IMG/VR virus record: IMGVR_UViG_3300044680_000048
Coordinates: 32,001-96,000 of that record
DNA length: 64,000 bases
Reading direction: 5' to 3' (one strand)
Source: a virus
In this document: piece after piece, positions 1 to 64,000 of the stretch
How positions within the stretch are numbered: position 1 is the first letter of the stretch
Layout: each line of letters starts with the position of its first letter
Made by a program: the position numbers and the translations under genes
The notes under the pieces: model-generated
Databases searched by the model: none
What the model saw: the letters and a program-made list of their open reading frames with translations, nothing else
Told to the model about the DNA's origin: nothing

Positions 1-44
1 CTACCTGATTGGCTACTTCAAAGGAGATTTGTGTTATTTTATTC

Positions 45-2372
45 TTAAGTCCCACTTGTTTTAGGTCCTACGTTGAGATAAGGAGTTACCCAGTTAATTT
101 CTGCATATCTTGCTACTTGAAGAGTTAATATTCCCGGAGGAGTAAAGCTCACTGTTTCTATTATTCCGGTAACAGTCACTTCATCAACAGTAGCGGAAGC
201 CAACATTCCAGGAACAGGCATTACGCCAAAGAAGACACAATTTATGGTCCCTTGGTAAGTTTTAACATATTGGGTTACATTAGAAGGTACTTGAACAGCC
301 GCTGCTCCACTTAAACCTTTACGGGTAACAGCAATATCAAAAGAGAAGTTTCCGGCAGCTACATCTGGGTTATTTGCTGGGAAGAACCTACTATCAATGG
401 TAATAATTGGGGTATACACATTTCCCCGCAAGACAGATGTAATATATGTATCAGCTAAAGGAACAGATTCCGCAAAGTTATACCAAAGTTCTGAATTAGT
501 TGTAACAATGCTGTAGTTGTAGGAGGCTAGGGAGTTAAAAGAAGCACTTCCGGCATTATTAGGATCAGTAATGAGAATTCGGGCATACACCTCATCATAA
601 TCAAATGGCAAGTCTATAACAACCGGTGGATCGGAAGTAGTTAATAATTTACTAATACTTCTGACCTGGGTTACGGGCTCAGATGAAGTTCCAGCCGATG
701 GAGCATTGCCGGAATTACCAGAATTGGAAGGATTGGTTACAAAAATGACATTAGCAAAATTTAATACAGGAGTAGGTATCGAATATACTCCTTGGTTAGG
801 ACTGAATGGGATAGGAGTCTCAACTCCACCAATTCCATATTCTAAGTCTTCTAATTCTTCCCAGAAGAGTCCATTAGCGGTAATAAGCTTGGCGGAAGGA
901 ATCGCAAAAGCCCCAATAGAATAGTTAGGAGAACAGACAGTATAATTAAGACCACCACTCCATCTAAGAACTCCCCCTACATATCCCGCAAGAGATTGAA
1001 GAGCAGAGAGTAAAGTCATTGTTGGTTGAATAGTAAACTGTTGGCTTAAAGCATTGTCAAAAGTGGTCCAAGTTAGATTAATTCCCACTCTTCGGGCTAA
1101 AGCAAGAGCTGTTTCTTTAACAGAGAAGTATCTAGAGCTGGTAAGAGGAACTACAACTTCTTTACCCGAGGTGTCTACTGCCAGAGCAGTTTGAGAATTA
1201 GCGAATAGTAGCCCGTATTGGGAAAAATTAGCATTTAATTGATTAAATAACACCGTATTATATAGTACATCAGCAATAGAGGTTCCACCATTAGCACCCC
1301 TACCTAGAATAAAGGAAAGTTGCTTATTTAGTAGAGGACTGCTTGCAAATATCCCCCTAGAAGCATAACCCTTGGCAGAATTTGAAACAATGTTCTCTGA
1401 TCCATTACCACCAGCAGTGATAATTGCGCTTAATCCAAATACACCAATAATGTCCCCATCATTACCAACAGTATTGAGGGAAGTTACACTCCAAGTTCCT
1501 CCTAAATAGTCTAAGCTTAAGGAGAAATTAAACATTTGTCCCCAATTGTTATTAGGAACATTGGAGTTAGGAATATCCACATAAACAGCAGTAGAAGGTG
1601 TTGCCGGAGGCACTCCTATAATAGTTGTTCCCCCAACAGCAACATTAGGACTAAAGGTGTTAGGCTGATAAACTCCATTGATAGTAGTTCCACTAGCAGC
1701 AGTAACACCTACAAGAGTAGCTACCTGTCCCCCAATGTCTACGGTGTATTTACCACCCTCTAATAGGGTTTGACCATAGACCTTAGTAGTGTATGCGGGA
1801 CATTCCAAGATTTGCCCTACTATCTTAACAGTACACTGCCGGTTAAGAATAGGAAGGGGCTCAATAAAAGACTCTTCTGTTCCTAGATTTTCATAGTAGG
1901 TTAATTTGATTATCTGGGAATAATAACTATTAACACCGCTGTTTTCAAAGGAGATATCAGGAGAAGCAGAAGCATAGTTTTCTACTAAGCCCAGATTCTC
2001 ATAATAAGTTTGAGAAACTGTTTGGGTGAAGAAATCCCCAAAACCCCCTACTTCCGTTGCTATTGCCGGAAGTTCGGAATAAACATCCTGAGTTCCTACA
2101 TTTTCATAATATGTCTGACTAACTGTCTGGGAGTAGTAATCATTGAGTCCGGCATTCTCTATTACTGTTCCGGTGGCTATATTCGCAAAGGTCAGAAGAT
2201 ACTGAAACCCGGTATTCTTAAAAGAAGTATGAGTGGAAGTACTTCCTTCAGCAATAAAGGATTGGTAAGCTTTGGCGGAAGACTGATAAGGAGAAGTTAG
2301 TCCAGTATGGGTTGAATTACTGTTCTCATTCTGGAAATTAACATGTACTGGATTGATGTCAAAGTGGGACAC
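45..2372 (-). CDS. distal tail / tail-fibre-like structural protein (775 aa)
   Basis: This is the last long ORF of the leftward tail operon, downstream of the tape measure. It is Ser/Thr/Gly/Asn-rich and has three YYEN-type motif copies near the N-terminus. TAA stop at 45-47. Function is inferred from position and composition only. Confidence 0.55.
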   Translation of the reverse strand: MSHFDINPVHVNFQNENSNSTHTGLTSPYQSSAKAYQSFIAEGSTSTHTSFKNTGFQYLLTFANIATGTVIENAGLNDYYSQTVSQTYYENVGTQDVYSELPAIATEVGGFGDFFTQTVSQTYYENLGLVENYASASPDISFENSGVNSYYSQIIKLTYYENLGTEESFIEPLPILNRQCTVKIVGQILECPAYTTKVYGQTLLEGGKYTVDIGGQVATLVGVTAASGTTINGVYQPNTFSPNVAVGGTTIIGVPPATPSTAVYVDIPNSNVPNNNWGQMFNFSLSLDYLGGTWSVTSLNTVGNDGDIIGVFGLSAIITAGGNGSENIVSNSAKGYASRGIFASSPLLNKQLSFILGRGANGGTSIADVLYNTVLFNQLNANFSQYGLLFANSQTALAVDTSGKEVVVPLTSSRYFSVKETALALARRVGINLTWTTFDNALSQQFTIQPTMTLLSALQSLAGYVGGVLRWSGGLNYTVCSPNYSIGAFAIPSAKLITANGLFWEELEDLEYGIGGVETPIPFSPNQGVYSIPTPVLNFANVIFVTNPSNSGNSGNAPSAGTSSEPVTQVRSISKLLTTSDPPVVIDLPFDYDEVYARILITDPNNAGSASFNSLASYNYSIVTTNSELWYNFAESVPLADTYITSVLRGNVYTPIITIDSRFFPANNPDVAAGNFSFDIAVTRKGLSGAAAVQVPSNVTQYVKTYQGTINCVFFGVMPVPGMLASATVDEVTVTGIIETVSFTPPGILTLQVARYAEINWVTPYLNVGPKTSGT
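1863..2141 (-). repeat. three copies of a ~16-aa [YF][YF][ST]Q..S.TYYEN[VL]G motif inside the 775-aa ORF
   Basis: Read in the translation: YYSQTVSQTYYENVG, FFTQTVSQTYYENLG and YYSQIIKLTYYENLG. Confidence 0.7.
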
Positions 2373-2381
2373 ATTCTAAAC

Positions 2382-3617
2382 CTATGTACTATACCGGCTG
2401 ACATCCCAGAGGGCATTAGCCCCATCTCCAACCTTCACAACTTCAATTATGTTTCTCCCGGTAGGAAGTCTATAATTGCCCGGAGATTGAAAGTATGTGT
2501 CCAAAAGCCTAACTGCTGTCCCAGAAGTGTCATCAAAGATCATCAAACGGGCTAGTTGATTTACTCCTGCTATTTGAACTGTAACAGTTCTCACAACAGT
2601 TGAACGGGGAACAACATTAAATACATAGATCCTTTCAGCAGTCTGCTGAACAGCAAAAGCTAAATTAGTTCCAGCACAGAAGCCTGTAGAAACTACTTTA
2701 TTAGTAGCATTAGTGTAGAAAGTTCCACTGGCTGTTATAGTCTGAACGGGAGAAGTAGTAAAGTCCACCTCTTGGACGGTATTATTTTCTGTTGACGTAA
2801 TATTATTCCAAGCTACTAAAGTTTCTCCACTGGCAGAAGCACAAAAGACTGCTGCGGGAGTATTAGCTGCCTGATTTATAGGCATTTGCCAGATCATAGT
2901 TCCAGTAGAGTAATCATATACCTGTTGCATATGCTCAGTCTCTACATATAAGAGATTTCCATCATAACTCATGCCAGATATGGTTATAATCGCCAAATTG
3001 GAAACACTAGTAGTATTAAGACTGGACATGCTTATAGGATACTGAACGTCTATGTGGTTTAGTATATTTCCATTGGAATCTATCTCATAAATCTTTCCAA
3101 ATCTTCCTCCAACTAGCCAACTTCCGGTTGATCTTAGGATAATACAAGCGGGAAGAAAGTTAGCACATCCTTGAATAGTAATATTAGAGACAGTTTGGGA
3201 AGAAGCAACTATCCTAGTTAATTGGTTAGACGTACCAGTAACATAAAAGGCAATTCCCGAGGCAGTATCTGCCGCAATTCTTTGATTATCAAATGACCCT
3301 AAGGTATTACCTCCAGAGACATTGGTTCTATATCCAGAAGAGTTTTCAATAAAATCTACCGTAGAAACACCCGTACTGGATATAACAGAAGAGGCGGAAT
3401 TAATTAAACAAACAGCACCTGGTGAAGATAGGCATGTAACACTAGACCCCACCTGAGCTAATGTAGTCAGAGAGTATTTCCTAAAGGTAGGTCCTGTAGA
3501 CTCTACAATATAGACCTGTCCATTAGAGGGGTCGGCAATTCCAGCTTGTAGTGTCGTAGAGGTGAGCTGTATAACTCCGGTATAAGAGATCATGCTGTAA
3601 ACTCCCGTATATCCCAC
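2382..3617 (-). CDS. tail-tip/baseplate-region protein, paralogue A (411 aa)
   Basis: It shares the GKI.EIDS.GN.L and Y.YSTGT.I motifs and a similar C-terminus with the adjacent 398-aa ORF. Composition is beta-rich. It overlaps the upstream ORF by 28 nt. Confidence 0.55.
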   Translation of the reverse strand: MGYTGVYSMISYTGVIQLTSTTLQAGIADPSNGQVYIVESTGPTFRKYSLTTLAQVGSSVTCLSSPGAVCLINSASSVISSTGVSTVDFIENSSGYRTNVSGGNTLGSFDNQRIAADTASGIAFYVTGTSNQLTRIVASSQTVSNITIQGCANFLPACIILRSTGSWLVGGRFGKIYEIDSNGNILNHIDVQYPISMSSLNTTSVSNLAIITISGMSYDGNLLYVETEHMQQVYDYSTGTMIWQMPINQAANTPAAVFCASASGETLVAWNNITSTENNTVQEVDFTTSPVQTITASGTFYTNATNKVVSTGFCAGTNLAFAVQQTAERIYVFNVVPRSTVVRTVTVQIAGVNQLARLMIFDDTSGTAVRLLDTYFQSPGNYRLPTGRNIIEVVKVGDGANALWDVSRYST

Positions 3618-7042: not shown

Positions 7043-10000
7043 TTAAGCAAATTGAGAGTTTAAACTAATAGATGCACCGGTTGATATGGCATCTACCAAG
7101 TCCGTCTTAGAGAGTTGGGAAAGGGTCTTAGAGTTAGTAGCAAGATCCTCCTTTACCCCTTTTATTGCTTCATCAAAGTCTTTCTTTTGTCTATCTTTAT
7201 ATTGGGAAGCTGATTCATTGGCTCTTTTTTCTCCGGTTTTATTAAATCGGTTAACAACTTTGTTGGCCTGTTTTTTTCTAGTATCCTCCGCTTCTTCTTC
7301 TGAGGGAAGACTAAAGTCAAATCCTGAATCTTTCAGTTGGTCTTTAATGTTATTAACTCCAGGATCAACTATTGTTTTTCGTAGAAATGCCTTAAGGGCA
7401 GGATTAGAATCCCCTAATTGAGAAGTGAATTCTTGAGCTTGCCGGAGAAAACTAAATTGTGCATTTAATCTCTCGGTAGGGATGTTAGCTTTCTCTCTTC
7501 GGTTCTTTTTCTGAGATATGTTAAATTCAGATTCAGTATCTGCGTCCTCTTCGGAGCCTCTAAGGTCACTATTCCTATTTAGGGCAGATTGATACTGCTT
7601 TTCAGCCCTATCTCTCTCAAACTGCTTACGAAAGGGATTTTCTAAACCATCTAAACCAGGAAGAAGCGTAGCAGCATTTAGCCTAGATTGGGCAGCATTA
7701 AGTCTATCTGAGAAATCAAACTGGTCTTCTGCGGACTCACCTTTAGCAAGACGACTTCCACCTTGGTCTATTCCAAGAACACCATTTAAAGCCTTCTGAG
7801 CTTCATTAATTTCCCTTTGACGGGTAATGTTATCAGCAATAGACTTATCTAGTGCCTCAAAGCTGTTTTTAGTAATATCTATAACCTTTACTAACCCTTG
7901 AAGTTCGCCAGGAAGCCCTTGGACACTTCCGCCAAGTTCAGAAACTCTATCGGCAGCTGTTAGAATATTTTCTTGTCTATTTAGATGTCTAAGTTCACGT
8001 TCATCCTTAAAATCTTCTTGGGCACGCCCAGTTCTCCTATAGGAAATATCAAGACTTTTGGTCTTATCATCTAGGTCAGCCATGGTATCTTTAAGCTTAG
8101 TAAACCCCTCAATTAGATTAAGGGTAGAACCATAAACATCTAGGGGAAGCTTTTCTTGGTCCCTTTTAAGTCCAGCAAGCTTAGTTTGTTCAGATCTAAG
8201 TTGAGCTTGGTCTTCTTCATTATTACCTGTTCCGTTTGCGACTCTTTTTTTAAGAAGTTCAATGTTAGCTTGAGCAGATTTAATTCCAGCAGCATCAGCG
8301 GCATTTCTTCCACTGAATGTGAAAGTATCAAATCCTTGGGCTCTAATGTTATTTCTCTTTATTTCTAGGTCAATGGACTCTCTAACTGTGCGGGTACCTT
8401 CTGCTATTATCTGTTTACGTTTAAGCTCAGATTCTGCGGAAGCATTGGAGACGGCATTATACTCTTCCGTACCCTTGGTAAGAGTCTTCAACCTTTCAGC
8501 TAAATTAGAAGAAATTTCAGTTTGGGTCTTTAGCCTAGCGTTAATGTCTTGTTGGGCAGCAGAATTCGCCTCTCTGGCTCCACCAATGGTACTCGTGTCA
8601 TAAAGCTTCTGATGTTCTGACTGTAGTGAGGTTTGTCCCTCTTCTATCAAATTGAGAAGAGGTGTTCTCTTGCTTAATTGTTGTTCTTTAGAGAGCCTAG
8701 TTAAACCTGCCAGTCCAGCAGTTGCAGCAGCTATCTGACTAAATGGGTTTTTGCCGGAACTGGCTATAGAGGTAGAATCAAATTTATCTAAATCTTCGGG
8801 CTTAAGTCCATAATCTGCTAATATGTTGTTAAATTTAGCTAGGGGGTTCAACCCTGATTGGAGTCCTGGAGATGTATTCTTGAGATTACCAACATTACCC
8901 CCCGCAGCTTTTAACTTAGCGAGTTGTGCAGCATTAGTTTGCAGCCTCCCGATCTGATTATCTTCTTCTATATCCGCATTGACTTTATCACCAATGCCAG
9001 GAAAAAATGTATTGAGGGCTACACTGTTTTGAACTCCTAGTCCTTTCAAAACGGGATTGTTGCGAATAGTTTCTGAAATTAAGTTCTGTGTATTGGTGTT
9101 ATTTTGTCCTGTTTGTTCAATTAATTTAATAACAACAACAGTAGCAGTGGAGCTAAGATTTCCTATTGCAGCCGCTAAATTTTGAAGATTTTTAGTAATA
9201 GAAGGGTTGGAAATGAACTCATTGAACGCCTTAAGTCCTGGAAGGAGTGCCTTATTTAAGGATTCCCCAGCGTCTGCCTGGGCTGTATTTAGCTGAAACT
9301 GGGCCTTATAAATCTCTGTTAGGGGCTGATTACCATCTTTAATGGCTTGGTAAAACCCCCTTAGAGGTTCAATAGCCTTTTGAATATCTTCGGGAGTCCC
9401 GAAAGATAAAGCATTTTGTAAATCAGGGGCTAAAGCTTGGATAGTGGGTCCAACAGTTGTAGAACTTAATCTCTGTCCAGAACCAATATCACGTAACTCT
9501 CGTGCTTCTTTAGCTTCACCTAAATTGAAAGGCTTTAGGACTGCGGTCAAAACCGGTAGAACGTCCTTAAGTTCACCTTCGGTTGCTTTACCTCGCCTCC
9601 CCTCTTGATACGCCTGTGTTAGAAGAAATTCTTCTTTCCCTCCAACGCCTAGAGGAGCTAGTGCAACTCTAGCCGTCTTCTGAAAACGTGTGGCTATTCT
9701 CTCCTGCTCTCCTAATTGCTCAGCAGGAGATACTGGCTTACCATCTCTAGTAATTTCAGTAGTAGCTTGGAGAAGCCCTACAGTTCCAGCTACCGATTTC
9801 TCAAAATCAAGAGCTACTTCAGAGGCAGATTTAAGAGTATCGAATAACTTCTCAAAAGCTGCTGTAGTAGCAGATACAATAGAAGTTCCAGCCAGAACAC
9901 CCGTTGCTCCACCAAGAGTAGTAGCACCTATTGCTCCACCAATGGCATTAGCAGGACCCCCTAAAAGTCCTGAAAAGAATACAGCCTGTGCTGCTTCTTT

Positions 10001-10690
10001 ATCTTGAGTTAGTCTCTTTATATCAAAAGCTTTCCGGGAAGCTTGAAGCCGGGAAGGATCTAGTCCTTGAGCTAACTCTTCTCTTAAGGGGTTAAAAGAA
10101 AAAGCATCGGCAAGCCCTAACTTTTTATTCGCCTTAGTATACTTAAGATCTTCTGCATCGTTAAGGTCTCTCAATTTCTGAGCAGCAAGTTGAGAACGTC
10201 TAGCTTGAACCGCCTGATTTTCTGAATCCTTACGGAGAGTTTTTTGGATCTCCCCTAAAGGTTGATCTGTAAGACCAGTAGTAGAAGAAAAAGATCGAAT
10301 TCTTTGTAGCTGACTAGCGGCTATTGCCCTAGCTTGTGCAATTAAATTATCACCAATAACAGTATAGGCGGTTTCTACAGCCCTATTTAACACCTGTGGT
10401 GCAGCAGCCACAGGAGCATTACCAACTATTGGAGCATTACCTCCTGCGGGAACTCCATTATTATTTACATTTATTCGTAAACCATTCTGTGCAATATTAA
10501 GAAGTTGTCTTAACTCATCTCCTACAAAATTTAATCTAACATCAATGGTAATTCCGGTTCTAGCAGCAGCTAGAAGTTCTGCCAGTTGAGCATTAGGAGC
10601 CAAATTGGCAGTAACAGTAAGCCCTCTAAGTTGATCTTGGAGATCTGAAAGGTTACTGATCCTGGCTGTTATATCTATCTCTTTAGCCAC
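7043..10690 (-). CDS. tail tape measure protein (1215 aa)
   Basis: Longest ORF of the tail operon, downstream of the G/GT chaperone pair. It is Ala/Gln/Leu/Lys/Glu-rich and coiled-coil-like throughout. It has a Gly-rich hydrophobic segment (FFSGLLGGPANAIGGAIGATTLGGATGVLAG). The GTG start overlaps the upstream TAG (TAGTG). Confidence 0.8.
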   Translation of the reverse strand: MAKEIDITARISNLSDLQDQLRGLTVTANLAPNAQLAELLAAARTGITIDVRLNFVGDELRQLLNIAQNGLRINVNNNGVPAGGNAPIVGNAPVAAAPQVLNRAVETAYTVIGDNLIAQARAIAASQLQRIRSFSSTTGLTDQPLGEIQKTLRKDSENQAVQARRSQLAAQKLRDLNDAEDLKYTKANKKLGLADAFSFNPLREELAQGLDPSRLQASRKAFDIKRLTQDKEAAQAVFFSGLLGGPANAIGGAIGATTLGGATGVLAGTSIVSATTAAFEKLFDTLKSASEVALDFEKSVAGTVGLLQATTEITRDGKPVSPAEQLGEQERIATRFQKTARVALAPLGVGGKEEFLLTQAYQEGRRGKATEGELKDVLPVLTAVLKPFNLGEAKEARELRDIGSGQRLSSTTVGPTIQALAPDLQNALSFGTPEDIQKAIEPLRGFYQAIKDGNQPLTEIYKAQFQLNTAQADAGESLNKALLPGLKAFNEFISNPSITKNLQNLAAAIGNLSSTATVVVIKLIEQTGQNNTNTQNLISETIRNNPVLKGLGVQNSVALNTFFPGIGDKVNADIEEDNQIGRLQTNAAQLAKLKAAGGNVGNLKNTSPGLQSGLNPLAKFNNILADYGLKPEDLDKFDSTSIASSGKNPFSQIAAATAGLAGLTRLSKEQQLSKRTPLLNLIEEGQTSLQSEHQKLYDTSTIGGAREANSAAQQDINARLKTQTEISSNLAERLKTLTKGTEEYNAVSNASAESELKRKQIIAEGTRTVRESIDLEIKRNNIRAQGFDTFTFSGRNAADAAGIKSAQANIELLKKRVANGTGNNEEDQAQLRSEQTKLAGLKRDQEKLPLDVYGSTLNLIEGFTKLKDTMADLDDKTKSLDISYRRTGRAQEDFKDERELRHLNRQENILTAADRVSELGGSVQGLPGELQGLVKVIDITKNSFEALDKSIADNITRQREINEAQKALNGVLGIDQGGSRLAKGESAEDQFDFSDRLNAAQSRLNAATLLPGLDGLENPFRKQFERDRAEKQYQSALNRNSDLRGSEEDADTESEFNISQKKNRREKANIPTERLNAQFSFLRQAQEFTSQLGDSNPALKAFLRKTIVDPGVNNIKDQLKDSGFDFSLPSEEEAEDTRKKQANKVVNRFNKTGEKRANESASQYKDRQKKDFDEAIKGVKEDLATNSKTLSQLSKTDLVDAISTGASISLNSQFA

Positions 10691-12525: not shown

Positions 12526-12534
12526 ATTCTAACT
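12526..12534 (-). promoter_or_regulatory. AGTTAGAAT promoter-like box
   Basis: The minus strand reads AAAGTTAGAATCCC, 15 nt upstream of the GTG at 12511. It belongs to the same family as the boxes at 13607, 16651, 31395 and 48509. Confidence 0.4.
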
Positions 12535-12554
12535 TTTAGATTTTACTTAATTAG

Positions 12555-13606: not shown

Positions 13607-13615
13607 ATTGTAACT
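13607..13615 (-). promoter_or_regulatory. AGTTACAAT promoter-like box
   Basis: The minus strand reads GTAGTTACAATTC in the intergenic region upstream of the 307-aa ORF. The 12-mer TAGTTACAATTC is identical to the one at 31393-31404. Confidence 0.4.
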
Positions 13616-13621
13616 ACAGGT

Positions 13622-16643: not shown

Positions 16644-16659
16644 TTCCGGAAGTTACAAT
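16644..16659 (+). promoter_or_regulatory. TTCCGGAAGTTACAAT promoter-like box
   Basis: It lies 32 nt upstream of the ATG at 16691. It is nearly identical to TTCCGGAAGTTAGAAT at 48502-48517. Confidence 0.45.
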
Positions 16660-16690: not shown

Positions 16691-17071
16691 ATGAAACGAC
16701 CGGAAGGTTACTTTGGAAAACTACTAACAGTAGATTTTCTAGGTATAAGATCTGAACTCCTAGTAGATAAAGAGTTAATGGCTGAGGTTTCCCGTCAAGT
16801 TATTAGTCTTGCGGCAATGACCATAATACAAGGTCCAGACATTTTCTATTATGAGCACCCAACAGACCCATTAGAGAGTGGACTTACCGGATGTACTATC
16901 CTCTCAGAAAGTCACTTCACATTTCACTCGTTCCAGAGAAGCGGGTTCCTAACCCTAGATCTGTATAGCTGTTCAGATTTTATTCCGGAAACAATTATAA
17001 GTTACCTAAAGGGTGTATTTAACCCAACTTCAATGGAAACTAATGTTCACCTTAGAGGGAAGGGATACTAG
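16691..17071 (+). CDS. speD: S-adenosylmethionine decarboxylase proenzyme, small pyruvoyl class (126 aa)
   Basis: The LSESHFTFHSF segment matches the ESH self-cleavage site. The downstream LDLYSC segment and the ~125-aa size fit bacterial class 1b AdoMetDC. A GGAG box precedes the ATG. Its TAG shares a CTAG with the convergent gene. Confidence 0.65.
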   Translation: MKRPEGYFGKLLTVDFLGIRSELLVDKELMAEVSRQVISLAAMTIIQGPDIFYYEHPTDPLESGLTGCTILSESHFTFHSFQRSGFLTLDLYSCSDFIPETIISYLKGVFNPTSMETNVHLRGKGY

Positions 17072-19555: not shown

Positions 19556-19767
19556 AGATTGAAAGATACGAGAACTATTATGGAGAGCAAGAGCTAACTT
19601 TCTGGTTTGGTAATAATTATTTCATGTTTGACTCCAAGGGTAACTTTGAATTCTTAGCTGCAGGTTATGGTAGTGGTTATGAAGTTGTTCCAGATATAAC
19701 TAAACGGGACACACTTAGCAAAGAAGAACGGGAAATCCTTATTAAATTCCTTCAGGAGATTGAATGA
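19552..19767 (+). CDS. hypothetical protein (71 aa)
   Basis: It overlaps both neighbouring genes by 4 nt, as expected for a translationally coupled operon. Confidence 0.5.
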   Translation: MKIERYENYYGEQELTFWFGNNYFMFDSKGNFEFLAAGYGSGYEVVPDITKRDTLSKEEREILIKFLQEIE

Positions 19768-20246
19768 AAGGACAGAAGCAAGTATTCTCTAGTACATATC
19801 AAAATTGGGAGACTCCTAAACCTTTATTTAATAGGTTACATGAAAGATTTAATTTTACTATAGATCTTGCCGCAAGCCCTGATAACCATCTATTACCTAG
19901 ATTCTATACAGAAGAAGATAATTCCCTAATTCAATCTTGGGTAGATGAACGGGGGTTCACTAACCCTCCTTATAATATAGCTCCAGAATTCATTGAAAAG
20001 TCCTATATGGAAGTAGCTTATGGGTGTATGGAGTTGAATCTTTTATTGGTTCCGGCAAGAACTAGTAACAAAGAGTGGGAAGAATTTGTATTCCCTCATG
20101 CGGAGGAGTTGATTTTTATCAATGGACGTGTTAAGTTTGGTAATAGTCCAACCGGTGCTCCTTTTCCTTCTGTTTGTATACTCTTCCGGGAAGACAATTG
20201 CGGGAAAGGTCCTAAAGTCAGTTGGATATCAGTAAGAGGTGAATAA
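19764..20246 (+). CDS. DNA N6-adenine methyltransferase, phage Dam family (160 aa)
   Basis: It has WETPKPLF, FTIDLAA and the catalytic NPPY motif (FTNPPYN), in the order typical of the small phage Dam family. Confidence 0.7.
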   Translation: MKGQKQVFSSTYQNWETPKPLFNRLHERFNFTIDLAASPDNHLLPRFYTEEDNSLIQSWVDERGFTNPPYNIAPEFIEKSYMEVAYGCMELNLLLVPARTSNKEWEEFVFPHAEELIFINGRVKFGNSPTGAPFPSVCILFREDNCGKGPKVSWISVRGE

Positions 20247-24203: not shown

Positions 24204-24282
24204 AGTAGGGTAGGGGAGTCTGGTCGTCCCCGCAAGGCTCATAACCTTGAGATCGTGAGTTCAAATCTCACCCTTGCAACCA
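24204..24282 (+). tRNA. tRNA with CAU anticodon (Met, or Ile2 if lysidine-modified), CCA encoded
   Basis: I folded the cloverleaf by hand. The D stem is GGGG/CCCC with a GG-containing loop. The anticodon arm is CAAGG-CTCATAA-CCTTG. The variable loop is AGATC. The T arm is GTGAG-TTCAAAT-CTCAC. The acceptor stem AGTAGGG/CCTTGCA has an A1-A72 mismatch and two G-U pairs, followed by ACCA. Confidence 0.75.
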
Positions 24283-25221: not shown

Positions 25222-26061
25222 CTAAAAGCTGCCCCTTAAGGTTTCATAGGCTAACTCATATCCATGGTTTATTAGGGACTTCCGGTCCTTCTTATAGTTA
25301 AAGTCTATTAAATTACGCTGAATATTACTCTCTGCCTTTACTACTATAACTTTAACCTCTCTAAACCGAGAGTTGGTAGATACTATGGAGTTGATTGTCT
25401 CAACAAATTTAAGTTCTTTCGATATGGAGATATAAGACGGTAATGATAAACCAGCCTGCATTACATCTAAAATACTGTTTATCTTGTAACAAGTCTCCGG
25501 CACTTGAGGTTGAAACAAGACAACAACATCGGCGCCCATTTCTACTGCCTGAGAAACCGAGAAGTTATTACTTAGCCCACCATCTAGGTATTGTTGACCA
25601 TTAAGAGAAACAGGCTCAAATAAAACTGGAGGTGAAGCAGATGCTCGTAAGAACGCCGGCAAGTCTTCTCCTAACTCATGAACGTCTTTAGTAACACCGC
25701 TCCAATCTGTAAAATTAGTAACGTTAATTAAGAATTTCTTAGGGTTTCCGGCAACTTTACCATTATCTATATATTTCTTTAATGTTCTTTCCAGAGGAGA
25801 AGAGTCGTATAAACAGAACTTACCGGAAAGAAAGTTACCAAATGGGTTTAAACTATAAACATCCGGATTCTTAATATTCATCCACAGATCTAGCATTTCA
25901 TCTATTCTATTTTGATGAAGAAAAAGACCATTCAGGCTACCAACGGAAGTTCCATGAAGAACGTCATAAGTAAGTCCTAATTCATGCCAAGCTTTAATCA
26001 TCCCGGCTTGTAGGATGCCCATTGAACCGCCGCCGGAAAGACATAGGTGGATATTAGACAT
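25222..26061 (-). CDS. patatin-like phospholipase (279 aa)
   Basis: It has the oxyanion-hole motif SGGGSMG, the GxSxG nucleophile GTSVGS and the catalytic Asp motif YLDGGLSNN. The Ser-Asp dyad is therefore intact. Confidence 0.8.
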   Translation of the reverse strand: MSNIHLCLSGGGSMGILQAGMIKAWHELGLTYDVLHGTSVGSLNGLFLHQNRIDEMLDLWMNIKNPDVYSLNPFGNFLSGKFCLYDSSPLERTLKKYIDNGKVAGNPKKFLINVTNFTDWSGVTKDVHELGEDLPAFLRASASPPVLFEPVSLNGQQYLDGGLSNNFSVSQAVEMGADVVVLFQPQVPETCYKINSILDVMQAGLSLPSYISISKELKFVETINSIVSTNSRFREVKVIVVKAESNIQRNLIDFNYKKDRKSLINHGYELAYETLRGSF

Positions 26062-36573: not shown

Positions 36574-36587
36574 ATATCACCTCCTAA

Positions 36588-47809: not shown

Positions 47810-48084
47810 ATAAGTTCATTAAACAAGCCCAAATAGATTCTCAGATGTTAGTGAGGGCGGAACTTCTCCGCCCTCTATTTCCTGGAGCTACTGATGAGCA
47901 GTTAGCAGATGAAGTGCTTTCAACACTATGGTGGACAAAGAGCCGGAAGAAAGTTAGCCGGAAATACATAGGTTCTTTAGTAAAAGAATACCAACAGAGA
48001 CTCAATGAGGCAAATCTTGAAAGTTCTGAAACTCAAACAGATACAGGAAGCTTGCCCCTCGAAGTGGATAGCCTACCTGGATAA
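47788..48084 (+). CDS. hypothetical protein (98 aa)
   Basis: Co-oriented ORF. It contains two CGG-AA Arg contexts (SRKKVSRK). Confidence 0.45.
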   Translation: MPDQSDLDKFIKQAQIDSQMLVRAELLRPLFPGATDEQLADEVLSTLWWTKSRKKVSRKYIGSLVKEYQQRLNEANLESSETQTDTGSLPLEVDSLPG

Positions 48085-48488: not shown

Positions 48489-48501
48489 GTTAAAAAAGAA
48501 C

Positions 48502-48517
48502 TTCCGGAAGTTAGAAT
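48502..48517 (+). promoter_or_regulatory. TTCCGGAAGTTAGAAT promoter-like box
   Basis: It lies upstream of nrdA and matches the box at 16644-16659 at 15 of 16 positions. A second AGTTAGACAAT lies at 48528-48538. Confidence 0.45.
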
Positions 48518-52882: not shown

Positions 52883-53131
52883 ATGGGAAATAAAGGCACA
52901 GCTGATATTGGAATCAAGGGTAAGATAGAAGCAATATTCTTTAATCTATTCCCGAAAGGTAAAGTAATGAATAAGGAAGAGATTAATAAACTCGTAAACA
53001 CTAAGATTAAGGCTACTCCCAAGACTGTTAATGGAGTACTGGTTGACCTTATACAAGAGGGAAAACTCAAAGTAGCTCAACATGAATCTGGAAGAAGATT
53101 ATTTGAAGTTCTTGCCGGAGATAAGAAATGA
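52883..53131 (+). CDS. small possible winged-helix DNA-binding protein (82 aa)
   Basis: The KTVNGVLVDLIQEGKL segment resembles a recognition helix plus wing. The start may instead be the internal MNKEE. This call is weak. Confidence 0.35.
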   Translation: MGNKGTADIGIKGKIEAIFFNLFPKGKVMNKEEINKLVNTKIKATPKTVNGVLVDLIQEGKLKVAQHESGRRLFEVLAGDKK

Positions 53132-53730
53132 TAACTATCTTAGGAGCTGGGGGCTTTGCTAAAGAAGTTCTAGCTCTTCTAAAGTTCAACAACTCCTCCA
53201 TTTTTGAATACAGGATGGTAGTAGAACCTTTTGGTAATTATATGACCGATAGGTTTTATTATATGGGAGTAGGAGATCCCTACTTAAGGTACAAGTTTTA
53301 TAATCACTTTAGGGCTAAACATAGCAATTTTAACCCCTTAATCTCTAATGATTTAATCTGTGATGACGAGACAGTAAGCTTTGGGGAAGGAACTATAGTC
53401 TGCCAAAACTGTGTAATAACCACAGATGTTCAGGTAGGAAAGTTTTCTATCATCAATATTTCTAGTACTGTAGGGCATGATGCTAGGATAGGAGACTTTG
53501 TAACTATAGCTCCAGCTTGTAATATTCTTGGTTTTGCAGAAGTAGGGGACTTTACTGAACTAGGGGCTAACGTAACAGTTCTTCCTAAAGTCAGGATTGG
53601 AAAGCACTGTATGATAGGTGCTGGAACACTAGTTACAAAAGATGTTCCGGACTATTCTCTTGTATATGGAGTTCCGGGAAAAGTTATTAAAGAATATAGA
53701 AAGGATAAGAGATATGAGTCAACAAACTAA
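53128..53730 (+). CDS. hexapeptide-repeat sugar N/O-acetyltransferase, NeuD/PglD-like (200 aa)
   Basis: It has an N-terminal ILGAGGFAKEV Rossmann-like start and a C-terminal left-handed beta-helix repeat pattern (IGDFVTIAPACNILG, VGDFTELGANVTV, IGKHCMIGAGTLV). Confidence 0.7.
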   Translation: MITILGAGGFAKEVLALLKFNNSSIFEYRMVVEPFGNYMTDRFYYMGVGDPYLRYKFYNHFRAKHSNFNPLISNDLICDDETVSFGEGTIVCQNCVITTDVQVGKFSIINISSTVGHDARIGDFVTIAPACNILGFAEVGDFTELGANVTVLPKVRIGKHCMIGAGTLVTKDVPDYSLVYGVPGKVIKEYRKDKRYESTN

Positions 53731-54013
53731 TAACAATAGGGAGTTTAGAGATTTTTGTAATTTCTGGCAAAAGTATGATATTTACGCTAGAGATAAGTTG
53801 GATGCTCTATTGACTCTAGCTTTAAAGGCTGAGCAGGAAGAAGAAAAACAACTAATAGACCAATACGAGGATTATCTAGAGACTCTTTGTCCTGAAGATA
53901 AGGAACTTGCTATTTCTATAACAGAGTATAAGAACCAAGAATTTGAAATGTGTTTCAGCAATCAACAGATGGAAAATGCTTATGGGTTTCTGAGGCTTAT
54001 CCGGAATGCCTAA
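53714..54013 (+). CDS. hypothetical protein (99 aa from the ATG at 53714)
   Basis: I prefer the internal ATG. The protein is helical and acidic. Confidence 0.45.
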   Translation: MSQQTNNNREFRDFCNFWQKYDIYARDKLDALLTLALKAEQEEEKQLIDQYEDYLETLCPEDKELAISITEYKNQEFEMCFSNQQMENAYGFLRLIRNA

Positions 54014-54737
54014 ATCCATATCTGTCTGTGCCTGGACATATAATCAAGAAAACTTTGTGAAACCTATGATGGAAAGTGTACTCCATCAGAAGAGTTCAAA
54101 TTTTCATTTAATCATAGCTGATGATTGCAGTACAGATGGAACGCCTGTTCATATAGAAAATTATTCTCACATTTATAAGGGGTTATTGACTTTAGTTCAG
54201 CCCGAAAAGAATATAGGAGCAGCTTCCGATTTCTGTATCTCTAAAGCTCCTAAGGTTGATTACATAGCCTTTATGGATGGGGATGATCAATGGCTTCCGG
54301 AAAAGCTAGAAAAGTCTATTGCTTTCCTAGAAGAAAACAACTATGATATGGTATGTACTGATGTAATGAGTATTAATCCTGCCGGAGAACATTTGGGAAG
54401 AGCACTAGACTGGATGAATCTTCCCCAAACTCTTACTATAAAAGAGCTTTCAGTGGATAACAGAATCTATACCTCTACAGTAGTAGCCAAGATGGGCATT
54501 ATTCTAAAGTCTCCTGGCTTTCTTGGGTTTGGGTATAAGGTTCTCTTAGACTATCCGTTATTTCTATGGCTTGCGGCAAGATATAAAATTGGATACCTCA
54601 ATGAAGCCCTTACCTATAAGATGCAGAATACCAATTCTGTCCTTCATCATTCTAATACCAAAGATATAGGAATTTGGGAGTATGGACACCAGAAGATGAA
54701 CATGGCTCAAATAATAAGTACAACGGGAAGAAAATGA
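54006..54737 (+). CDS. family 2 glycosyltransferase (243 aa)
   Basis: ISVCAWTYNQENFV...LIIADDCSTDGT and the DxD-type FMDGDDQW are canonical GT-A/GT2 signatures. Confidence 0.75.
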   Translation: MPKSISVCAWTYNQENFVKPMMESVLHQKSSNFHLIIADDCSTDGTPVHIENYSHIYKGLLTLVQPEKNIGAASDFCISKAPKVDYIAFMDGDDQWLPEKLEKSIAFLEENNYDMVCTDVMSINPAGEHLGRALDWMNLPQTLTIKELSVDNRIYTSTVVAKMGIILKSPGFLGFGYKVLLDYPLFLWLAARYKIGYLNEALTYKMQNTNSVLHHSNTKDIGIWEYGHQKMNMAQIISTTGRK

Positions 54738-55405
54738 TCCAAATCTATGGACTAGCCTACAGAAGACCGGATTATCTTGAGAAGTGTATTGAAAGTCTTT
54801 TTATAAATAGGTCTGAGCCAGTTGAGATAAATGTAGCTGAAAGTAAAAGTCCTGTTTCCCTCAGACCTCTATTAGAAGGTTATGTTAAAGGGGGACAAAT
54901 TAAACGGGCTTGTATCTTTGAAGAGAATGTAGCTTCTTGGGGCTTACAGAAGATGATTGAGGATTTCCCTCCTCAAGATAAGTTTTTTATAATGACGGAT
55001 TTAGACCTTATTGTTCCCACAGGATGTGATTATCTTGGTATAATAAGGGAGGCTCAAGAACGAAATGTCTTAACCGGATGCACTCTTAGTCTGGAAAACT
55101 ATGTTCCGCCCAATTGGGGCTATGGGGGAGATGCTGATGGTTTTGGTGGGTGGTTGATGAGTCTCCGGACAGATATTTGGAAACAATATCCTGCTGGATG
55201 TCCTATTGCGGATGCTTGGATTATAGAGTTCTTCAAACACTTTGGACTGGTAGAGAAACTTTTAGATATCAGACTTTACCATTTAGCTTGGGATTTATGG
55301 AAGGACGATCCGGAATACCTCGAACACAAAATTCAGAACCATGCAGCAATCTTTAATAATGGAAACCGTCCAGTTAATTTAAACTATGAGTTGATAGAAA
55401 GATGA
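54734..55405 (+). CDS. GT-A-like glycosyltransferase candidate (223 aa)
   Basis: The YGLAYRRPDYLEKCIESL start and the IMTDLDLIV segment (DxD-like) support the call. ATGA overlap with the upstream gene. Confidence 0.4.
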   Translation: MIQIYGLAYRRPDYLEKCIESLFINRSEPVEINVAESKSPVSLRPLLEGYVKGGQIKRACIFEENVASWGLQKMIEDFPPQDKFFIMTDLDLIVPTGCDYLGIIREAQERNVLTGCTLSLENYVPPNWGYGGDADGFGGWLMSLRTDIWKQYPAGCPIADAWIIEFFKHFGLVEKLLDIRLYHLAWDLWKDDPEYLEHKIQNHAAIFNNGNRPVNLNYELIER

Positions 55406-56427
55406 CCTACTATGTCGGAAAACCTAATGTCTGTAATCCGGAAGGGATGATAGAGTACGTTTATAAAGTACTCCGTTCCGGAAAACTTACTAATAACGGG
55501 GAACAAGTAGAAGCTTTTGAATACGAATTTGCTAATAAGCATAAGTTTAAATATGCAGTAGCGGTATCCAATGCTACAGTAGGATTACAATTATGCCTTT
55601 CCGGATACCCTAATGGAAGAATAGGACTTCCAGCATTTAGCTTTATAGCCACATTAAATGCAGTTAAGAATAGCAAACTTCTGCCAGACTTCTATGATGT
55701 AGATGAGAACATGGCTATTAACAATTCTGAATCTAGATTGACTTTGCCAGTAAACCTATTCGGGTCCTGTGTTCCCGAAAAGTTTAACGGGAAGAATGTA
55801 GCTGTATATGATTCAGCCCATTGTACTGGAATGGATGTAACTCACCTTAAGGGTGCTCCTCATGTATTCTCCCTTCATGCAACTAAATTAGTAAATAGTT
55901 GTGAGGGAGGGATGATCTGTACTGATAATAAATTCTTAGCTGATTATTTAAAGGCTGCTAGAAACTTCGGATTTGACCCCAATTCTGAAGCTCCGGAAGG
56001 GGAAATTCTGGATATAGATGGCGGAACTAATGCCAAAATGAGTGAAGTTCATGCGGCAATAGGAAGATTTAATCTTGCCTCAGTAGGGGAAATCATTGAA
56101 TATAATAAGCAAATCTTCAAATGGTATGAAGAATTCTTACCGGAAGTTAATTTATTCATCCCACCGGAAAGTTCAAATTTTAGCTACATAGTAATGAATT
56201 TTCAGCCAGAGGTGCGGGAAAGACTTTACACCTCTCTAAGAGTAATGGGAGTAATGGTTCGTAAATACTTCGCCTACACACTTCCAAAAGTAGCTAAGAT
56301 TAAGGGGGATTTCCCCATGGCGGAAAGATTCTCCCAAACTAATCTAGCTTTTCCTACGGGAATGGAACTAAAACGGGAAGACATAGAACACATATGTAAA
56401 CTTACTAGAGGATTTATAAATGATTAA
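55402..56427 (+). CDS. DegT/DnrJ/EryC1-type PLP-dependent sugar aminotransferase (341 aa)
   Basis: FSLHATKLVNSCEGGMI contains the PLP-binding lysine in its typical context. The AVSNATVGL segment is also present. Confidence 0.7.
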   Translation: MTYYVGKPNVCNPEGMIEYVYKVLRSGKLTNNGEQVEAFEYEFANKHKFKYAVAVSNATVGLQLCLSGYPNGRIGLPAFSFIATLNAVKNSKLLPDFYDVDENMAINNSESRLTLPVNLFGSCVPEKFNGKNVAVYDSAHCTGMDVTHLKGAPHVFSLHATKLVNSCEGGMICTDNKFLADYLKAARNFGFDPNSEAPEGEILDIDGGTNAKMSEVHAAIGRFNLASVGEIIEYNKQIFKWYEEFLPEVNLFIPPESSNFSYIVMNFQPEVRERLYTSLRVMGVMVRKYFAYTLPKVAKIKGDFPMAERFSQTNLAFPTGMELKREDIEHICKLTRGFIND

Positions 56428-56980
56428 GATTAACTTGGGATGTGGACCAGATGTTAGACCGGGCTGGATTAGTGTGGATTTTCCACCAACACATGCGGGA
56501 CAAGTTCATCCAGATGTAGTACAATGGGACCTCTCTAAAGGAGTTCCAGATTCAATTGAACCAGAATCTGTAGACTTAGCTATGTCTAGTCATTTTTTAG
56601 AACATTTGGATGACAAAGACGGAAGAATATTTCTTATTAGTGTTTTGAATTCTTTAAAGAAAGGTGGAAAACTTCGTCTATGTTTGCCGGATGCCTTCAG
56701 AACCTGTAAGAATTACGTAGAGGGGAATTGGGATTTCTTCAATCCAGTCAGTGGATTTATAGGAGATCATTATCCAGAAACCAGAACTCTAATTGATTAT
56801 CTGACTCTCTGCGTTTATCAGGCAGGTGAACACAAGTCAGTCTGGGACGCCAAAAAGGCTATTAGAGTATTAGAAAATCTAGGATTTTCTAATGTTTATG
56901 AGTCACAATTTGACCCAACTATAGACTTGAATGAGCCTATCCGGATCATGTATAGTATATATGTAGAGGCTGTTAAATGA
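56420..56980 (+). CDS. class I SAM-dependent methyltransferase (186 aa)
   Basis: INLGCGPDVRPGWISVD is motif I. The protein is too small and lacks the motifs expected of a DNA C5-methyltransferase. Confidence 0.55.
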   Translation: MIKINLGCGPDVRPGWISVDFPPTHAGQVHPDVVQWDLSKGVPDSIEPESVDLAMSSHFLEHLDDKDGRIFLISVLNSLKKGGKLRLCLPDAFRTCKNYVEGNWDFFNPVSGFIGDHYPETRTLIDYLTLCVYQAGEHKSVWDAKKAIRVLENLGFSNVYESQFDPTIDLNEPIRIMYSIYVEAVK

Positions 56981-59882: not shown

Positions 59883-59937
59883 ACCAAAAAGTCTAGCAAT
59901 TACTTACTAGACTTAGAAGGCGGAGGGAGGAAAAGGA

Positions 59938-60147: not shown

Positions 60148-60148
60148 G

Positions 60149-60157: not shown

Positions 60158-60190
60158 ATCCTTAGAAGTTTTACAGTAGAGATTTTAGCA

Positions 60191-60403
60191 ATGAAAGTTA
60201 TCTTTGAAAATAGTATGAAAAACCCCTTCCAGTTCAAATATCCCCTAGTAAAGGTAGTCCGGAGAGACAGTGAAGACGGAGGATTTACAGAATCCTTCTT
60301 AGTCAATCCGGAAACAGCAGATACAAGAGTTAATCACGGAACTCTTCTACATAGTAATATACTAGAATTTGCCCTATTAGAACTAACCAAAGGGAAAGAA
60401 TAA
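60191..60403 (+). CDS. hypothetical protein (70 aa from the ATG at 60191)
   Basis: I prefer the internal ATG. The stop overlaps the dcd start. Confidence 0.45.
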   Translation: MKVIFENSMKNPFQFKYPLVKVVRRDSEDGGFTESFLVNPETADTRVNHGTLLHSNILEFALLELTKGKE

Positions 60404-60954
60404 TGATCTTAACTGATTGGGAGATTAGAAAAGCCATAGAAGATGGAGATATAGGAGTTGACCCTTTTGATGAGTCCTTAATTAATCCGGCAAGCCTTGA
60501 TATAAGGCTTGGAGATATGTTTTCATTAACGGAAGCCCAGAAAACTCAAGGAAAACGTAGAGAACCCTATGTAGACCCTATGGATAAAGAGAGTTTTAAT
60601 ACCCTTACATTCAAGGTCACAAAAGATTATTACCTTCCTCCAAGACGGGCAGTTTTAGCCTCAATGATGGAGAAAACTGTCCTTTCAGATAATATTTCTG
60701 TAAAGCTTTTCGGAAAGAGTTCTCTGGCTCGTTTGGGACTGATGAATTCCCCAGACGCTTGTTGGGTAGATTGTGGCTGGGTGGGCCAACTTACCATGGA
60801 GCTGTTCAACAGTTCAGACTTTGCCATAAGACTTGTTCCGGGAATGAAAATAGGACAGCTGGTCTTTTTTAAACATAAGAGGGCAAGTAAGCCCTACAAC
60901 TTAACGGGAAGATATTCAAACCAAGTACCCGGAATGGGCTCTCTTGGAATATAA
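60403..60954 (+). CDS. dcd: dCTP deaminase (183 aa)
   Basis: MILTDWEIRKAIEDGDIGVDPFDESLINPASLDIRLG is the canonical Dcd/dUTPase-superfamily N-terminus. The size is typical. Confidence 0.8.
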   Translation: MILTDWEIRKAIEDGDIGVDPFDESLINPASLDIRLGDMFSLTEAQKTQGKRREPYVDPMDKESFNTLTFKVTKDYYLPPRRAVLASMMEKTVLSDNISVKLFGKSSLARLGLMNSPDACWVDCGWVGQLTMELFNSSDFAIRLVPGMKIGQLVFFKHKRASKPYNLTGRYSNQVPGMGSLGI

Positions 60955-60966
60955 GGAGTAAAGTAG

Positions 60967-63517: not shown

Positions 63518-63746
63518 CGATACTATAACAAGCCACACTTACACCAAACACTATGGCACCTGCCAAGGATGGAAAGCTATCTATTGTGTTTACGGGAAGA
63601 CCCCTTCCGGAATCCCTGCTGGAGTAGCAGTAACTTTTGACCATAAGTTTTTCTTTAGTATTAAGGAATTAACAGATAAGAATCCGGAACTTCTTACCCA
63701 AGCAGTAAGTAAGGCGGAAGAAGTTCAAGAGAAGTTAGTGAGATGA
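63423..63746 (+). CDS. lipoprotein (107 aa)
   Basis: The signal peptide carries a lipobox: MKKSNLLVGLFTILALTGC. Confidence 0.6.
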   Translation: MKKSNLLVGLFTILALTGCDQNQLNLKVEKFDDTITSHTYTKHYGTCQGWKAIYCVYGKTPSGIPAGVAVTFDHKFFFSIKELTDKNPELLTQAVSKAEEVQEKLVR

Positions 63747-63916
63747 GAAGATATTGTGGGCTTTACCGGAACCCTTGGGCTAAATTTAAAGCCTATTTCC
63801 ACCAATATTTAACTTGCAAAATACTAGGATGCCATGTAAAGTTTAATAATGGGGACCCTTTTTGCCTAAAGTGTCTAATCCATACCATACAACCGAGGAG
63901 AAGTAATGGATCTTAA
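63743..63916 (+). CDS. small Cys-rich protein (57 aa, below the track cutoff)
   Basis: Hand translation gives MRRYCGLYRNPWAKFKAYFHQYLTCKILGCHVKFNNGDPFCLKCLIHTIQPRRSNGS. ATGA overlap with the upstream gene. Confidence 0.35.
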   Translation: MRRYCGLYRNPWAKFKAYFHQYLTCKILGCHVKFNNGDPFCLKCLIHTIQPRRSNGS

Positions 63917-64000
63917 AGATAAAGTATTTGATATTTGGTTTAGAGATTGGATCTACTACATAGTAGGAAATTCCCGCAAAAATGATGATAATTCAGAAAC
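63906..64000 (+). CDS. partial ORF running off the window (MDLKDKVFDIWFRDWIYYIVGN...)
   Basis: A GAGGAG box lies 6 nt upstream of the ATG. The frame is open to the window end. Confidence 0.4.
   Translation, partial: MDLKDKVFDIWFRDWIYYIVGNSRKNDDNSE

Follow-up and report, generated by a model that had tools for sequence, protein, structure and literature searches.

Genome-wide excess of CCGGAA/TTCCGG in an uncultured tailed phage, with other CpG-containing words in its relatives

The hexamer CCGGAA and its complement TTCCGG are strongly over-represented in a 64,000-nucleotide stretch of DNA (IMG/VR record IMGVR_UViG_3300044680_000048, positions 32,001 to 96,000; hereafter the window), which forms part of the genome, about 110 kb long, of an uncultured tailed phage. 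Together, the two words occur 183 times (2.9/kb), against 16.0±4.4 matches (largest 32) in dinucleotide-preserving shuffles. In every feature tested, namely uniformity, strand symmetry, independence of coding and absence from segments that were probably acquired recently, the excess fits the definition of a genome signature. It is specific to its lineage, and the same words recur in unrelated replicons. It is likely that the excess represents such a signature, passive and imposed from outside the phage lineage, rather than a set of functional sites.

Counts, reading frames and anatomy of the word

CCGG was found 278 times in the window (4.34/kb), 2.9 times the 95 copies (1.48/kb) expected from its base composition of 39.2% G+C. 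A preliminary description of the same DNA, which estimated G+C by eye at 37%, had recognized this excess, although with figures (5.5/kb against 1.2/kb) that the full count revises. CCGGAA (103 copies, 11x) and TTCCGG (80 copies, 9.8x) are the two most over-represented hexamers of the window, and 160 of the 278 CCGG (58%) lie in one or the other context, giving 2.5 motif-bearing cores/kb and supporting the earlier statement that most CCGG do so. The four hand counts behind that statement (15 CCGG with 6 in the motif, 7 with 7, 10 with 8 and 13 with 11) proved exact. The density of about 4 copies/kb drawn from them is correct for the sampled stretches (about 3.9/kb), but these are about 1.4–1.6 times richer than the window as a whole (2.5–2.9/kb). 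The full palindrome TTCCGGAA is present in 23 copies; the six coordinates given earlier are all correct, and 17 further copies exist. Their start positions are:

12166, 13766, 14071, 16644, 16983, 17149, 20362, 21574, 24107, 24976, 33405, 38621
39617, 41309, 44879, 47026, 48502, 54295, 55476, 57141, 57386, 58325, 63605 (the last ending at 63612)

Codon-level tests were carried out on 84 called open reading frames (ORFs) covering 92% of the window, a set consistent with gene calls on two Logan contigs of SRR35360315 that carry the same phage. Codons were permuted within each gene, so that proteins, dipeptides and per-gene codon usage were all kept. Against these synonymous shuffles, of a kind that the preliminary description had proposed as a check, the excess holds: CCGG was observed 267 times with 158±10 expected, CCGGAA 103 times with 31, TTCCGG 71 times with 22 and TTCCGGAA 21 times with 4.7, with z values from 8 to 14, and total CpG fell below the shuffled level (1155 vs 1571). 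The fold excess in intergenic DNA is the same as in coding DNA, with 11 CCGG observed against 4.2 expected, 8 hexamers against 0.87, and 68 CpG against 133. As had been noted, the motif occupies all three reading frames (91/129/47) and both strands; the two strands are equal in this respect.

Codon choice follows the word closely. CCG accounts for 5% of proline codons before A or T, 29% before G and 49% before GAA, the preference before GAA having been remarked on earlier. Similarly, NCC codons of the TCN, ACN and GCN families rise to as much as 34% ahead of glycine GGN. Arginine CGG stands at 27% after a C-ending codon, 21% after G and 5–9% after A or T, CGN making up 71% of the arginine codons that follow a C-ending codon; the CGG context pointed out at 47941-47963 was found to read AGCCGGAAG...AGCCGGAAA. 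The possibility that Pro-Glu or x-Gly-x peptides combined with preferred codons produce the excess is negligible. Amino-acid order does add slightly, CCGGAA being expected 19 times in whole-codon shuffles and 31 times in synonymous ones. However, the 103 copies observed with proteins fixed, the equal enrichment of TTCCGG on the sense strand, the intergenic excess and the small share of CCG (just 14% of all proline codons) stand against such an artefact, which the synonymous shuffles refute. The earlier view that the pressure acts on DNA and not on protein is thereby sustained, since the excess survives protein- and codon-preserving shuffles and extends to non-coding DNA.

The word stands out from a background depleted in CpG. 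In the window, CpG stands at half its expected frequency (rho 0.50), and neither TpG nor CpA is in excess; the depletion is context-dependent, with observed/expected ratios of 0.26 for TCG, 0.36 for ACG, 0.40 for GCG and 1.17 for CCG. Because the loss spares only CCG/CGG contexts, 23% of all CpG lie within CCGG. Markov models of orders 0 to 4 predict 17.5, 16, 78, 97 and 180 hexamer matches on both strands, against 183 observed. The Markov comparison suggested in the preliminary description therefore has two outcomes: orders 0–3 fail to account for the excess, whereas the maximal-order model explains both CCGG (278 vs 260) and CCGGAA (103 vs 100). The information is thus contained in contexts of 5 nt or less, and no long site is indicated. 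The palindromic framing of the motif did not hold either, as TTCCGGAA occurs 46 times on both strands where pentamers (order-4 Markov) predict 58, and 23 times on one strand where two independent half-sites predict about 30.

Among NCCGGN words, GCCGGA/TCCGGC is the highest (3.4x) and TCCGGA reaches 2.4x, whereas GCCGGC (0.29) and CCCGGG (0.21) are avoided. The wider word family is raised as well: CCGGAA (3.2x), CCGGCA (3.6x, as TTCCGGCAA), CGGGAA (2.9x), CCGCAA (2.0x) and GCGGAA (1.9x), and the family includes both orientations (CCGGCA/TGCCGG, GCCGGA/TCCGGC, CGGGAA/TTCCCG). Altogether, the enriched unit is a degenerate half-site, K-CCGG-(C)-AA, equally frequent in both orientations, and the palindrome itself is not favoured. 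No polarity of the word was found by transcription arm and sense strand, the sense-strand enrichment of CCGGAA and TTCCGG being alike overall (3.2–3.3x) and amounting to 2.96 and 3.01 in the leftward arm and 3.55 and 3.68 in the rightward arm. Beside the CCGG excess stands a deficit of short palindromes at the Markov level, the usual pattern of restriction avoidance: GGCC 0.36, CGCG 0.35, GCGC 0.60, TGCA 0.61, GTAC 0.64, CTAG 0.76 and GATC 0.76, compared with 1.07 for CCGG.

Distribution along the window and intergenic boxes

Placement along the window is random. CCGG per 1-kb bin has a mean of 4.34 and a variance of 3.79, as in a Poisson process, and the gaps fit an exponential distribution (Kolmogorov–Smirnov (KS) p = 0.86 for motif-bearing cores and 0.16 for all CCGG); no periodic or clustered spacing was seen in the window. 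A further 12.5 kb of the same phage beyond the window has an equal motif density. Against this even distribution, three segments are poor in the word:

26090-27304, minus strand: G+C-rich island (49% G+C) with 78 CpG and 6 CCGG, 0 of them in CCGGAA/TTCCGG context
33817-37049, minus strand: longest stretch without CCGGAA or TTCCGG, comprising the large-terminase ORF with a LAGLIDADG intein and two small ORFs
7442-8754, minus strand: CCGG-free stretch inside a 1215-aa ORF (7043-10690) with no family match

The absence of the motif from the island had been reported before and is borne out. The island encodes the Gly/Ser/Thr-rich C-terminal domain of a 1446-aa ORF together with ORF 26054-26494. 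Within the terminase region, CCGG is missing altogether from 35190-36533, and bin 8001-10000 has 2 CCGG among 39 CpG. The three segments probably represent recently acquired DNA; they are of the kinds that phages exchange, and their poverty in the word is expected if the signature accumulates slowly in resident DNA.

Some further features of these segments were recorded. CpG is not depleted in the G+C-rich stretch 26054-27400 (minus strand), and the assembly breaks at the island, the two Logan contigs of this phage terminating at about 26.44 kb. The region may constitute a strain-variable receptor-binding module. In the large-terminase ORF (33649-36363, minus strand), the intein Hint domain begins at ORF residue 1 and the N-extein is not evident; among the related phages described below, the terminase intein is present in L003, L215 and L216 and absent from L001 and L004.

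A role as an upstream promoter element, one of the meanings first considered, finds a place at two intergenic sites only:

16646-16659, plus strand: promoter-like box CCGGAAGTTACAAT, a perfect match to CCGGAAGTTASAAT, upstream of the speD-like gene at 16691-17071
48499-48512, plus strand: 14-bp perfect palindrome AACTTCCGGAAGTT, overlapping the box CCGGAAGTTAGAAT at 48504-48517

As described earlier, both boxes contain the motif. They share CCGGAAGTTA[C/G]AAT, which is common to just these two intergenic sites, and both lie upstream of rightward genes; the palindrome AACTTCCGGAAGTT sits in a sigma-70-like match (TTAAAA, 16 nt, TAGAAT) that precedes the gene for ribonucleotide reductase. As an explanation of the signal across the genome, a promoter role was rejected, since no more than 11 of the 278 CCGG are intergenic. 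The boxes may be real promoters or operators that include the word by chance, and they leave the other 181 hexamer matches unexplained. A candidate phage promoter consensus, AAGTTA[C/G]AAT, has two copies preceded by CCGG, and weaker copies occur on the minus strand at 13607-13620, 12526-12539 and 31325-31338.

Related phages, unrelated replicons and the host

Relatives were collected as portal and PolA homologues on contigs of 40–128 kb from Logan assemblies of several runs and from one Joint Genome Institute (JGI) metagenome. The comparison with related phages, also proposed at the outset, separates the background from the word: all relatives are CpG-poor (rho 0.31–0.69), yet none shows an excess of CCGG (observed/expected, o/e, 0.2–1.2) or CCGGAA (o/e 0–1.6). 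Likewise, the 68 viral contigs (6 kb or longer) with the closest ribonucleotide reductases all stay at or below an o/e of 2.9 for CCGGAA and have at most 9% of their CpG in CCGG. Most relatives have instead their own dominant CpG-containing word, strand-symmetric and present in several frames at 1–3/kb (1.1–2.9), which exceeds synonymous shuffles 4–6x and base composition 7.5–17x. These words are:

AGCCGC/GCGGCT (core GCSGC): L002, L213 and L215
GGCGGA/TCCGCC: L003 and L214
TGCCGA/TCGGCA: L004
no dominant word: L001/L212 and L216

The same word is found in L003 and L214 at about 40% protein identity and in L215 and L002 at 51% portal identity, whereas the closest relative of the window (68% portal identity) has no dominant word. 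Distant relatives thus share a word that close ones do not, and the word therefore does not follow phage phylogeny. At positions aligned with the closest relative, CCGGAA is kept at 2 of 38 window sites.

It is conceivable, if doubtful, that a clade of uncultured phages of about 110–130 kb carries a phage counterpart of the cyanobacterial highly iterated palindromes (HIPs), reporting a new sequence-specific DNA process, such as methyl-directed repair or self-marking, to which phage DNA is subject in the host or which it turns to its own use. Under the same doubtful reading, most genomes would have one dominant, strand-symmetric, CpG-centred 6-mer at 1–3/kb on a CpG-depleted background (CCGGAA in the window, and AGCSGCT, TGGCGGA or TGCCGR in others) that switches independently of phylogeny and would offer a direct guide to host range. 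What seems to be undescribed is that words switch within the clade while the background stays poor in CpG: a literature search on HIP1 and cyanophages found no treatment of HIP-like words in phage genomes, and one on the motif itself found nothing relevant.

Such words thus belong to the combination of a host and its replicons, and CCGGAA is one that recurs. With the same shuffle method, 50 kb of a Gloeothece/Cyanothece PCC 7822 plasmid (L217, NC_014533, 100000-149999) gave AGCCGC/GCGGCT, GCCGCC and AGCGGC, with A..T flanks, as top words, a list identical to that of L002, L213 and L215, which hints that these phages infect GCsGC-rich cyanobacteria. As controls, a Nostoc plasmid returned HIP1 and three unrelated cellular loci returned nothing. 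CCGGAA itself is enriched in the Bacteroides thetaiotaomicron plasmid p5482 (L222; 75 vs 28±5, and 2.0x over synonymous shuffles), in Bacteroides phage B40-8 (1.8x over shuffles) and in unrelated viral contigs such as L090 (IMG/VR 3300021387_001762; 98 vs 41 in synonymous shuffles), and CCGG in Methanosarcina spherical virus (MetSV, L221; 50 vs 17.6, 2.8x over shuffles). The contig L090 is from a phage whose genes have Shine-Dalgarno boxes, and it contains zero GATC or GGCC.

In addition to the terminase, the virion and packaging genes of the window include a portal and an SU10-type capsid protein, and its genes for DNA metabolism encode a family-A DNA polymerase (PolA), a class I ribonucleotide reductase, an RNA ligase and a dCTP deaminase. 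Other genes encode an Amidase_2 lysin and the products listed here, the speD-like decarboxylase, patatin-like phospholipase, dCTP deaminase and tRNA-Met being auxiliary genes:

19764-20246, plus strand: Dam-family N6-adenine DNA methyltransferase (PF05869, E 1e-23); no other DNA methyltransferase was found in the window
16691-17071, plus strand: speD-like AdoMet decarboxylase, with cyanophages as best phage matches at about 30% identity
25222-26061, minus strand: patatin-like phospholipase
60403-60954, plus strand: dCTP deaminase
24204-24282, plus strand: one tRNA-Met
53128-56980: sugar-nucleotide cluster with a hexapeptide transferase, two GT2 enzymes, a DegT aminotransferase and an S-adenosylmethionine (SAM) methyltransferase, with an NAD-dependent epimerase nearby

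The sugar-nucleotide cluster may act on the virion, on the host surface or on DNA, and pieces of it were found again in the clade (L211 18383-19354, L212, L213 and L214). A 39-bp tandem repeat (two copies, 78% match, 22293-22369) lies within a 724-aa DUF6582/ParB-like ORF. A JGI contig of 111,990 bp (P0035) encodes a dCTP deaminase identical to that of the window and is probably a near-complete genome. Against 50,697 records of cultured phages, neither the DNA nor the portal or capsid protein of the window gave a match. PolA and the speD-like protein gave the sole matches, all of them distant, at 25–33% identity (25–28% for PolA). A portal query against viral contigs and a metagenome scan for the remaining part of the phage genome gave no match.

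The host was approached through the same DNA. Shine-Dalgarno-like boxes precede 45% of the genes, against a background of 12%, and together with the murein amidase and -10-like boxes they indicate a bacterial host outside Bacteroidota; the latter group was rejected because no such boxes were found in Bacteroides DNA. An archaeal host was considered for the Methanoplanus dCTP deaminase (41% identity, the only named cellular homologue) and the CCGG-rich Methanosarcina virus, and was rejected because the phage has an Amidase_2 endolysin and -10-like boxes, and because relatives carry genes for peptide deformylase and an RF-1 domain. For a cyanobacterial host there are no more than hints, namely the speD-like gene and the GCsGC match in relatives. 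Two scans of genome collections, in which the portal and DegT proteins served as queries, yielded no usable relative and hence no host. Thermophily was rejected as a cause of the CpG loss, since the IVYWREL fraction (0.366) is typical of mesophiles.

Origin of the excess and comparison with known systems

Of the meanings proposed in the preliminary description, a host-driven signature provides the best fit, being supported by independence from phylogeny, absence from probably recent DNA and the existence of cellular counterparts; a host with the same word is the part that would have to be supplied by inference. The proposed account is as follows. A strand-symmetric pressure on double-stranded DNA would remove CpG in nearly every context, while CpG flanked as C_G would be tolerated or created, above all in the half-site K-CCGG-A-A. 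This pressure would act uniformly over coding and non-coding DNA, with probably recent segments not yet reshaped, and would originate from the environment of a Shine-Dalgarno-using, peptidoglycan-bearing bacterial host through methylation, repair or defence. The most likely mechanism would be a methylation of specific DNA sequences to which a biased mismatch repair is coupled, the model put forward for cyanobacterial HIP1 and the alternate HIPs, superimposed on a general avoidance of CpG and short palindromes. Taken as a whole, this account is plausible but falls somewhat short of being probable, and methylation-linked repair as the specific cause is possible with considerable doubt. The word densities of 1–3/kb in the clade match those reported for HIPs.

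Several observations weigh against a signature mirrored from the host through methylation-linked repair. Mirroring presupposes for this phage a host that the scans did not match. Of the phage genome of about 110 kb, about 77 kb was covered, and this part yielded neither Vsr nor a cytosine methyltransferase (no C5 or N4 enzyme and no PF00145 match); neither was seen in about 180 kb of loci from relatives. A modification target, as proposed earlier, is possible, though nothing found supports it directly: a Dam-like N6-adenine methyltransferase is the one such enzyme present. TpG/CpA neighbours of the word occur at undiminished frequency (CTGGAA 0.97, CCAGAA 1.38), so a simple signature of very-short-patch repair is absent; TCGGAA stands at 0.81, but TCG is low everywhere. 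Pentamer frequencies account fully for the word, and it lacks periodic spacing; in both respects it differs from HIP1. Most cyanobacteria have HIP1 in hyper-abundance, yet Anabaena phage A-4L contains zero HIP1, GATC or GGCC, and phages therefore do not always mirror the words of their hosts. Finally, a plasmid from a guessed host type, pCY360 of Butyrivibrio (Lachnospiraceae), has no enrichment of the word (12 vs 11).

An indirect origin in the avoidance of restriction or other defences would leave CCGG-type contexts as the only ones unattacked and channel the demand for G+C or CpG codons into them, with no positive drive. The depletion of short palindromes around an undepleted CCGG agrees with this, as do the shunning of GCCGGC and CCCGGG and the distinct avoidance profiles of relatives, such as a GGCC o/e of 0.03 in L004. 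Escape from avoidance alone is insufficient, however, because the words lie above neutral expectation: CCGGAA is the commonest of the CCNNAA-type neighbours (168 vs 83 for CCAGAA) and remains about 5x over expectation even with the CpG depletion cancelled, and GGCGGA in L214 is 6.3x over shuffles. This origin is accordingly considered unlikely.

A word with a function for the phage, maintained by selection at 2–3/kb as the target of the Dam-like methyltransferase, of a primase or of a condensing or packaging factor, or as a self-mark, is quite unlikely. Relatives do carry different words at similar densities, every dominant word contains adenine, PF05869 adenine methyltransferases are encoded both in the window and in L213, and the two promoter-like boxes contain the word. 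On the other hand, the PF05869 enzymes are small, and these two phages differ in their words although both encode one. The sharing of words runs counter to phylogeny, and CCGGAA is also enriched in Bacteroides DNA unrelated to the phage. Random spacing, unconserved positions and a degenerate word family make fixed binding sites unlikely; the spacing shows no clustering in the available part of the genome, whose ends lie outside it. For the same reasons, and because the full palindrome is not preferred, the DNA-binding or packaging site suggested earlier is not favoured. Chi sequences, which phages can accumulate, are short and rich in G+C and differ between species. A polar signal of this or another kind, serving recombination or protection from the exonuclease of host RecBCD/AddAB, would be in keeping with the RecA-like protein and PD-(D/E)XK nuclease encoded immediately right of the window. 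Such a signal is nevertheless very improbable given the zero orientation bias by arm or transcription, the degenerate word family and the palindromic cores of two of the clade's words (CCGG and GCSGC).

The preferred explanation, a genome signature imposed from outside the phage lineage, has consequences for how such genomes are interpreted. Phages are known for avoiding short words, and the concentration of about a quarter of a scarce dinucleotide in one tetramer is unusual. Together with relatives that carry other words, this phage suggests that phage DNA undergoes a strong sequence-specific process, which may be methylation-linked repair. Should the word be copied from the host, it could serve as a marker of host range for uncultured phages and would then link AGCCGC phages to GCsGC-rich cyanobacteria. 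Motif finders will flag CCGGAA as a site in this genome, whereas the evidence indicates composition and not regulation.

Dinucleotide and tetranucleotide genome signatures of the Karlin type are the basis of alignment-free prediction of phage hosts. The excess resembles them in being uniform, strand-symmetric, coding-independent and absent from segments that were probably acquired recently, and in being shared by unrelated replicons of one host, as CCGGAA is by the Bacteroides plasmid and phage B40-8. It differs in its unusually large amplitude (a top hexamer at 10x and 23% of CpG in one tetramer), in its concentration in a single word family and in a background far more CpG-poor than that of the cellular DNAs tested. 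A second comparison is with Escherichia coli, in which oligonucleotide biases were reportedly attributed by Bhagwat and McClelland in 1992 and by Merkl et al. in 1992 to very-short-patch repair near Dcm sites. There, as would be the case here, a repair bias acting with a cytosine methyltransferase lifts the methylated word genome-wide on both strands. The model predicts fewer T-containing neighbours, unlike the ratios of 0.97 and 1.38 found here, and the examined part of the phage lacks Vsr and a C5 methyltransferase. The avoidance of restriction sites by phages likewise concerns short, mostly palindromic words at the DNA level (Rusinov et al. 2018, PMC6286503); the window avoids GGCC, TGCA, GTAC, CTAG, GATC, CGCG, GCCGGC and CCCGGG in this manner, and the enrichment of CCGGAA has the opposite sign.

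Alternate HIPs include GCsGC (Cyanothece PCC 7822), rCCGGy (Oscillatoria PCC 10802) and GGCGCC (Calothrix PCC 7103); every one of them is accompanied by a methyltransferase that fits the word, and a ratchet based on methyl-directed mismatch repair has been proposed for them (Elhai 2015, PMC4390886). HIP1 itself, GCGATCGC, is reported to be 15- to 300-fold over-represented, and quasi-periodic spacing or positional conservation serves as a criterion for HIPs (Xu et al. 2018, PMC5861425). Several properties set the present word apart. Its carrier is a phage with a CpG-depleted background, and no cognate methyltransferase was found in the part of that phage examined, where the Dam-like PF05869 enzyme is alone. 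The enriched unit is the asymmetric half-site K-CCGG-AA and not rCCGGy (GCCGGC 0.29), and its excess vanishes against a pentamer-based expectation, in contrast to the 15- to 300-fold figure reported for HIP1. Its spacing is random (KS p = 0.86), with 2 of 38 sites conserved in the closest relative. The likenesses are equally specific. In both cases, a short G+C-rich word with a methylatable C at its centre is lineage-specific, occurs in all frames and in non-coding DNA, and varies among related genomes. The alternate HIP rCCGGy has a CCGG core, and GCsGC with A..T flanks is the exact word list of L002, L213 and L215. Judged as a HIP, the word lacks a palindromic unit, a high-order excess and periodic spacing; it agrees with HIPs in its independence of reading frame and in its density, which is 2.9/kb for CCGGAA compared with about 0.5–2.5/kb or more for HIPs.

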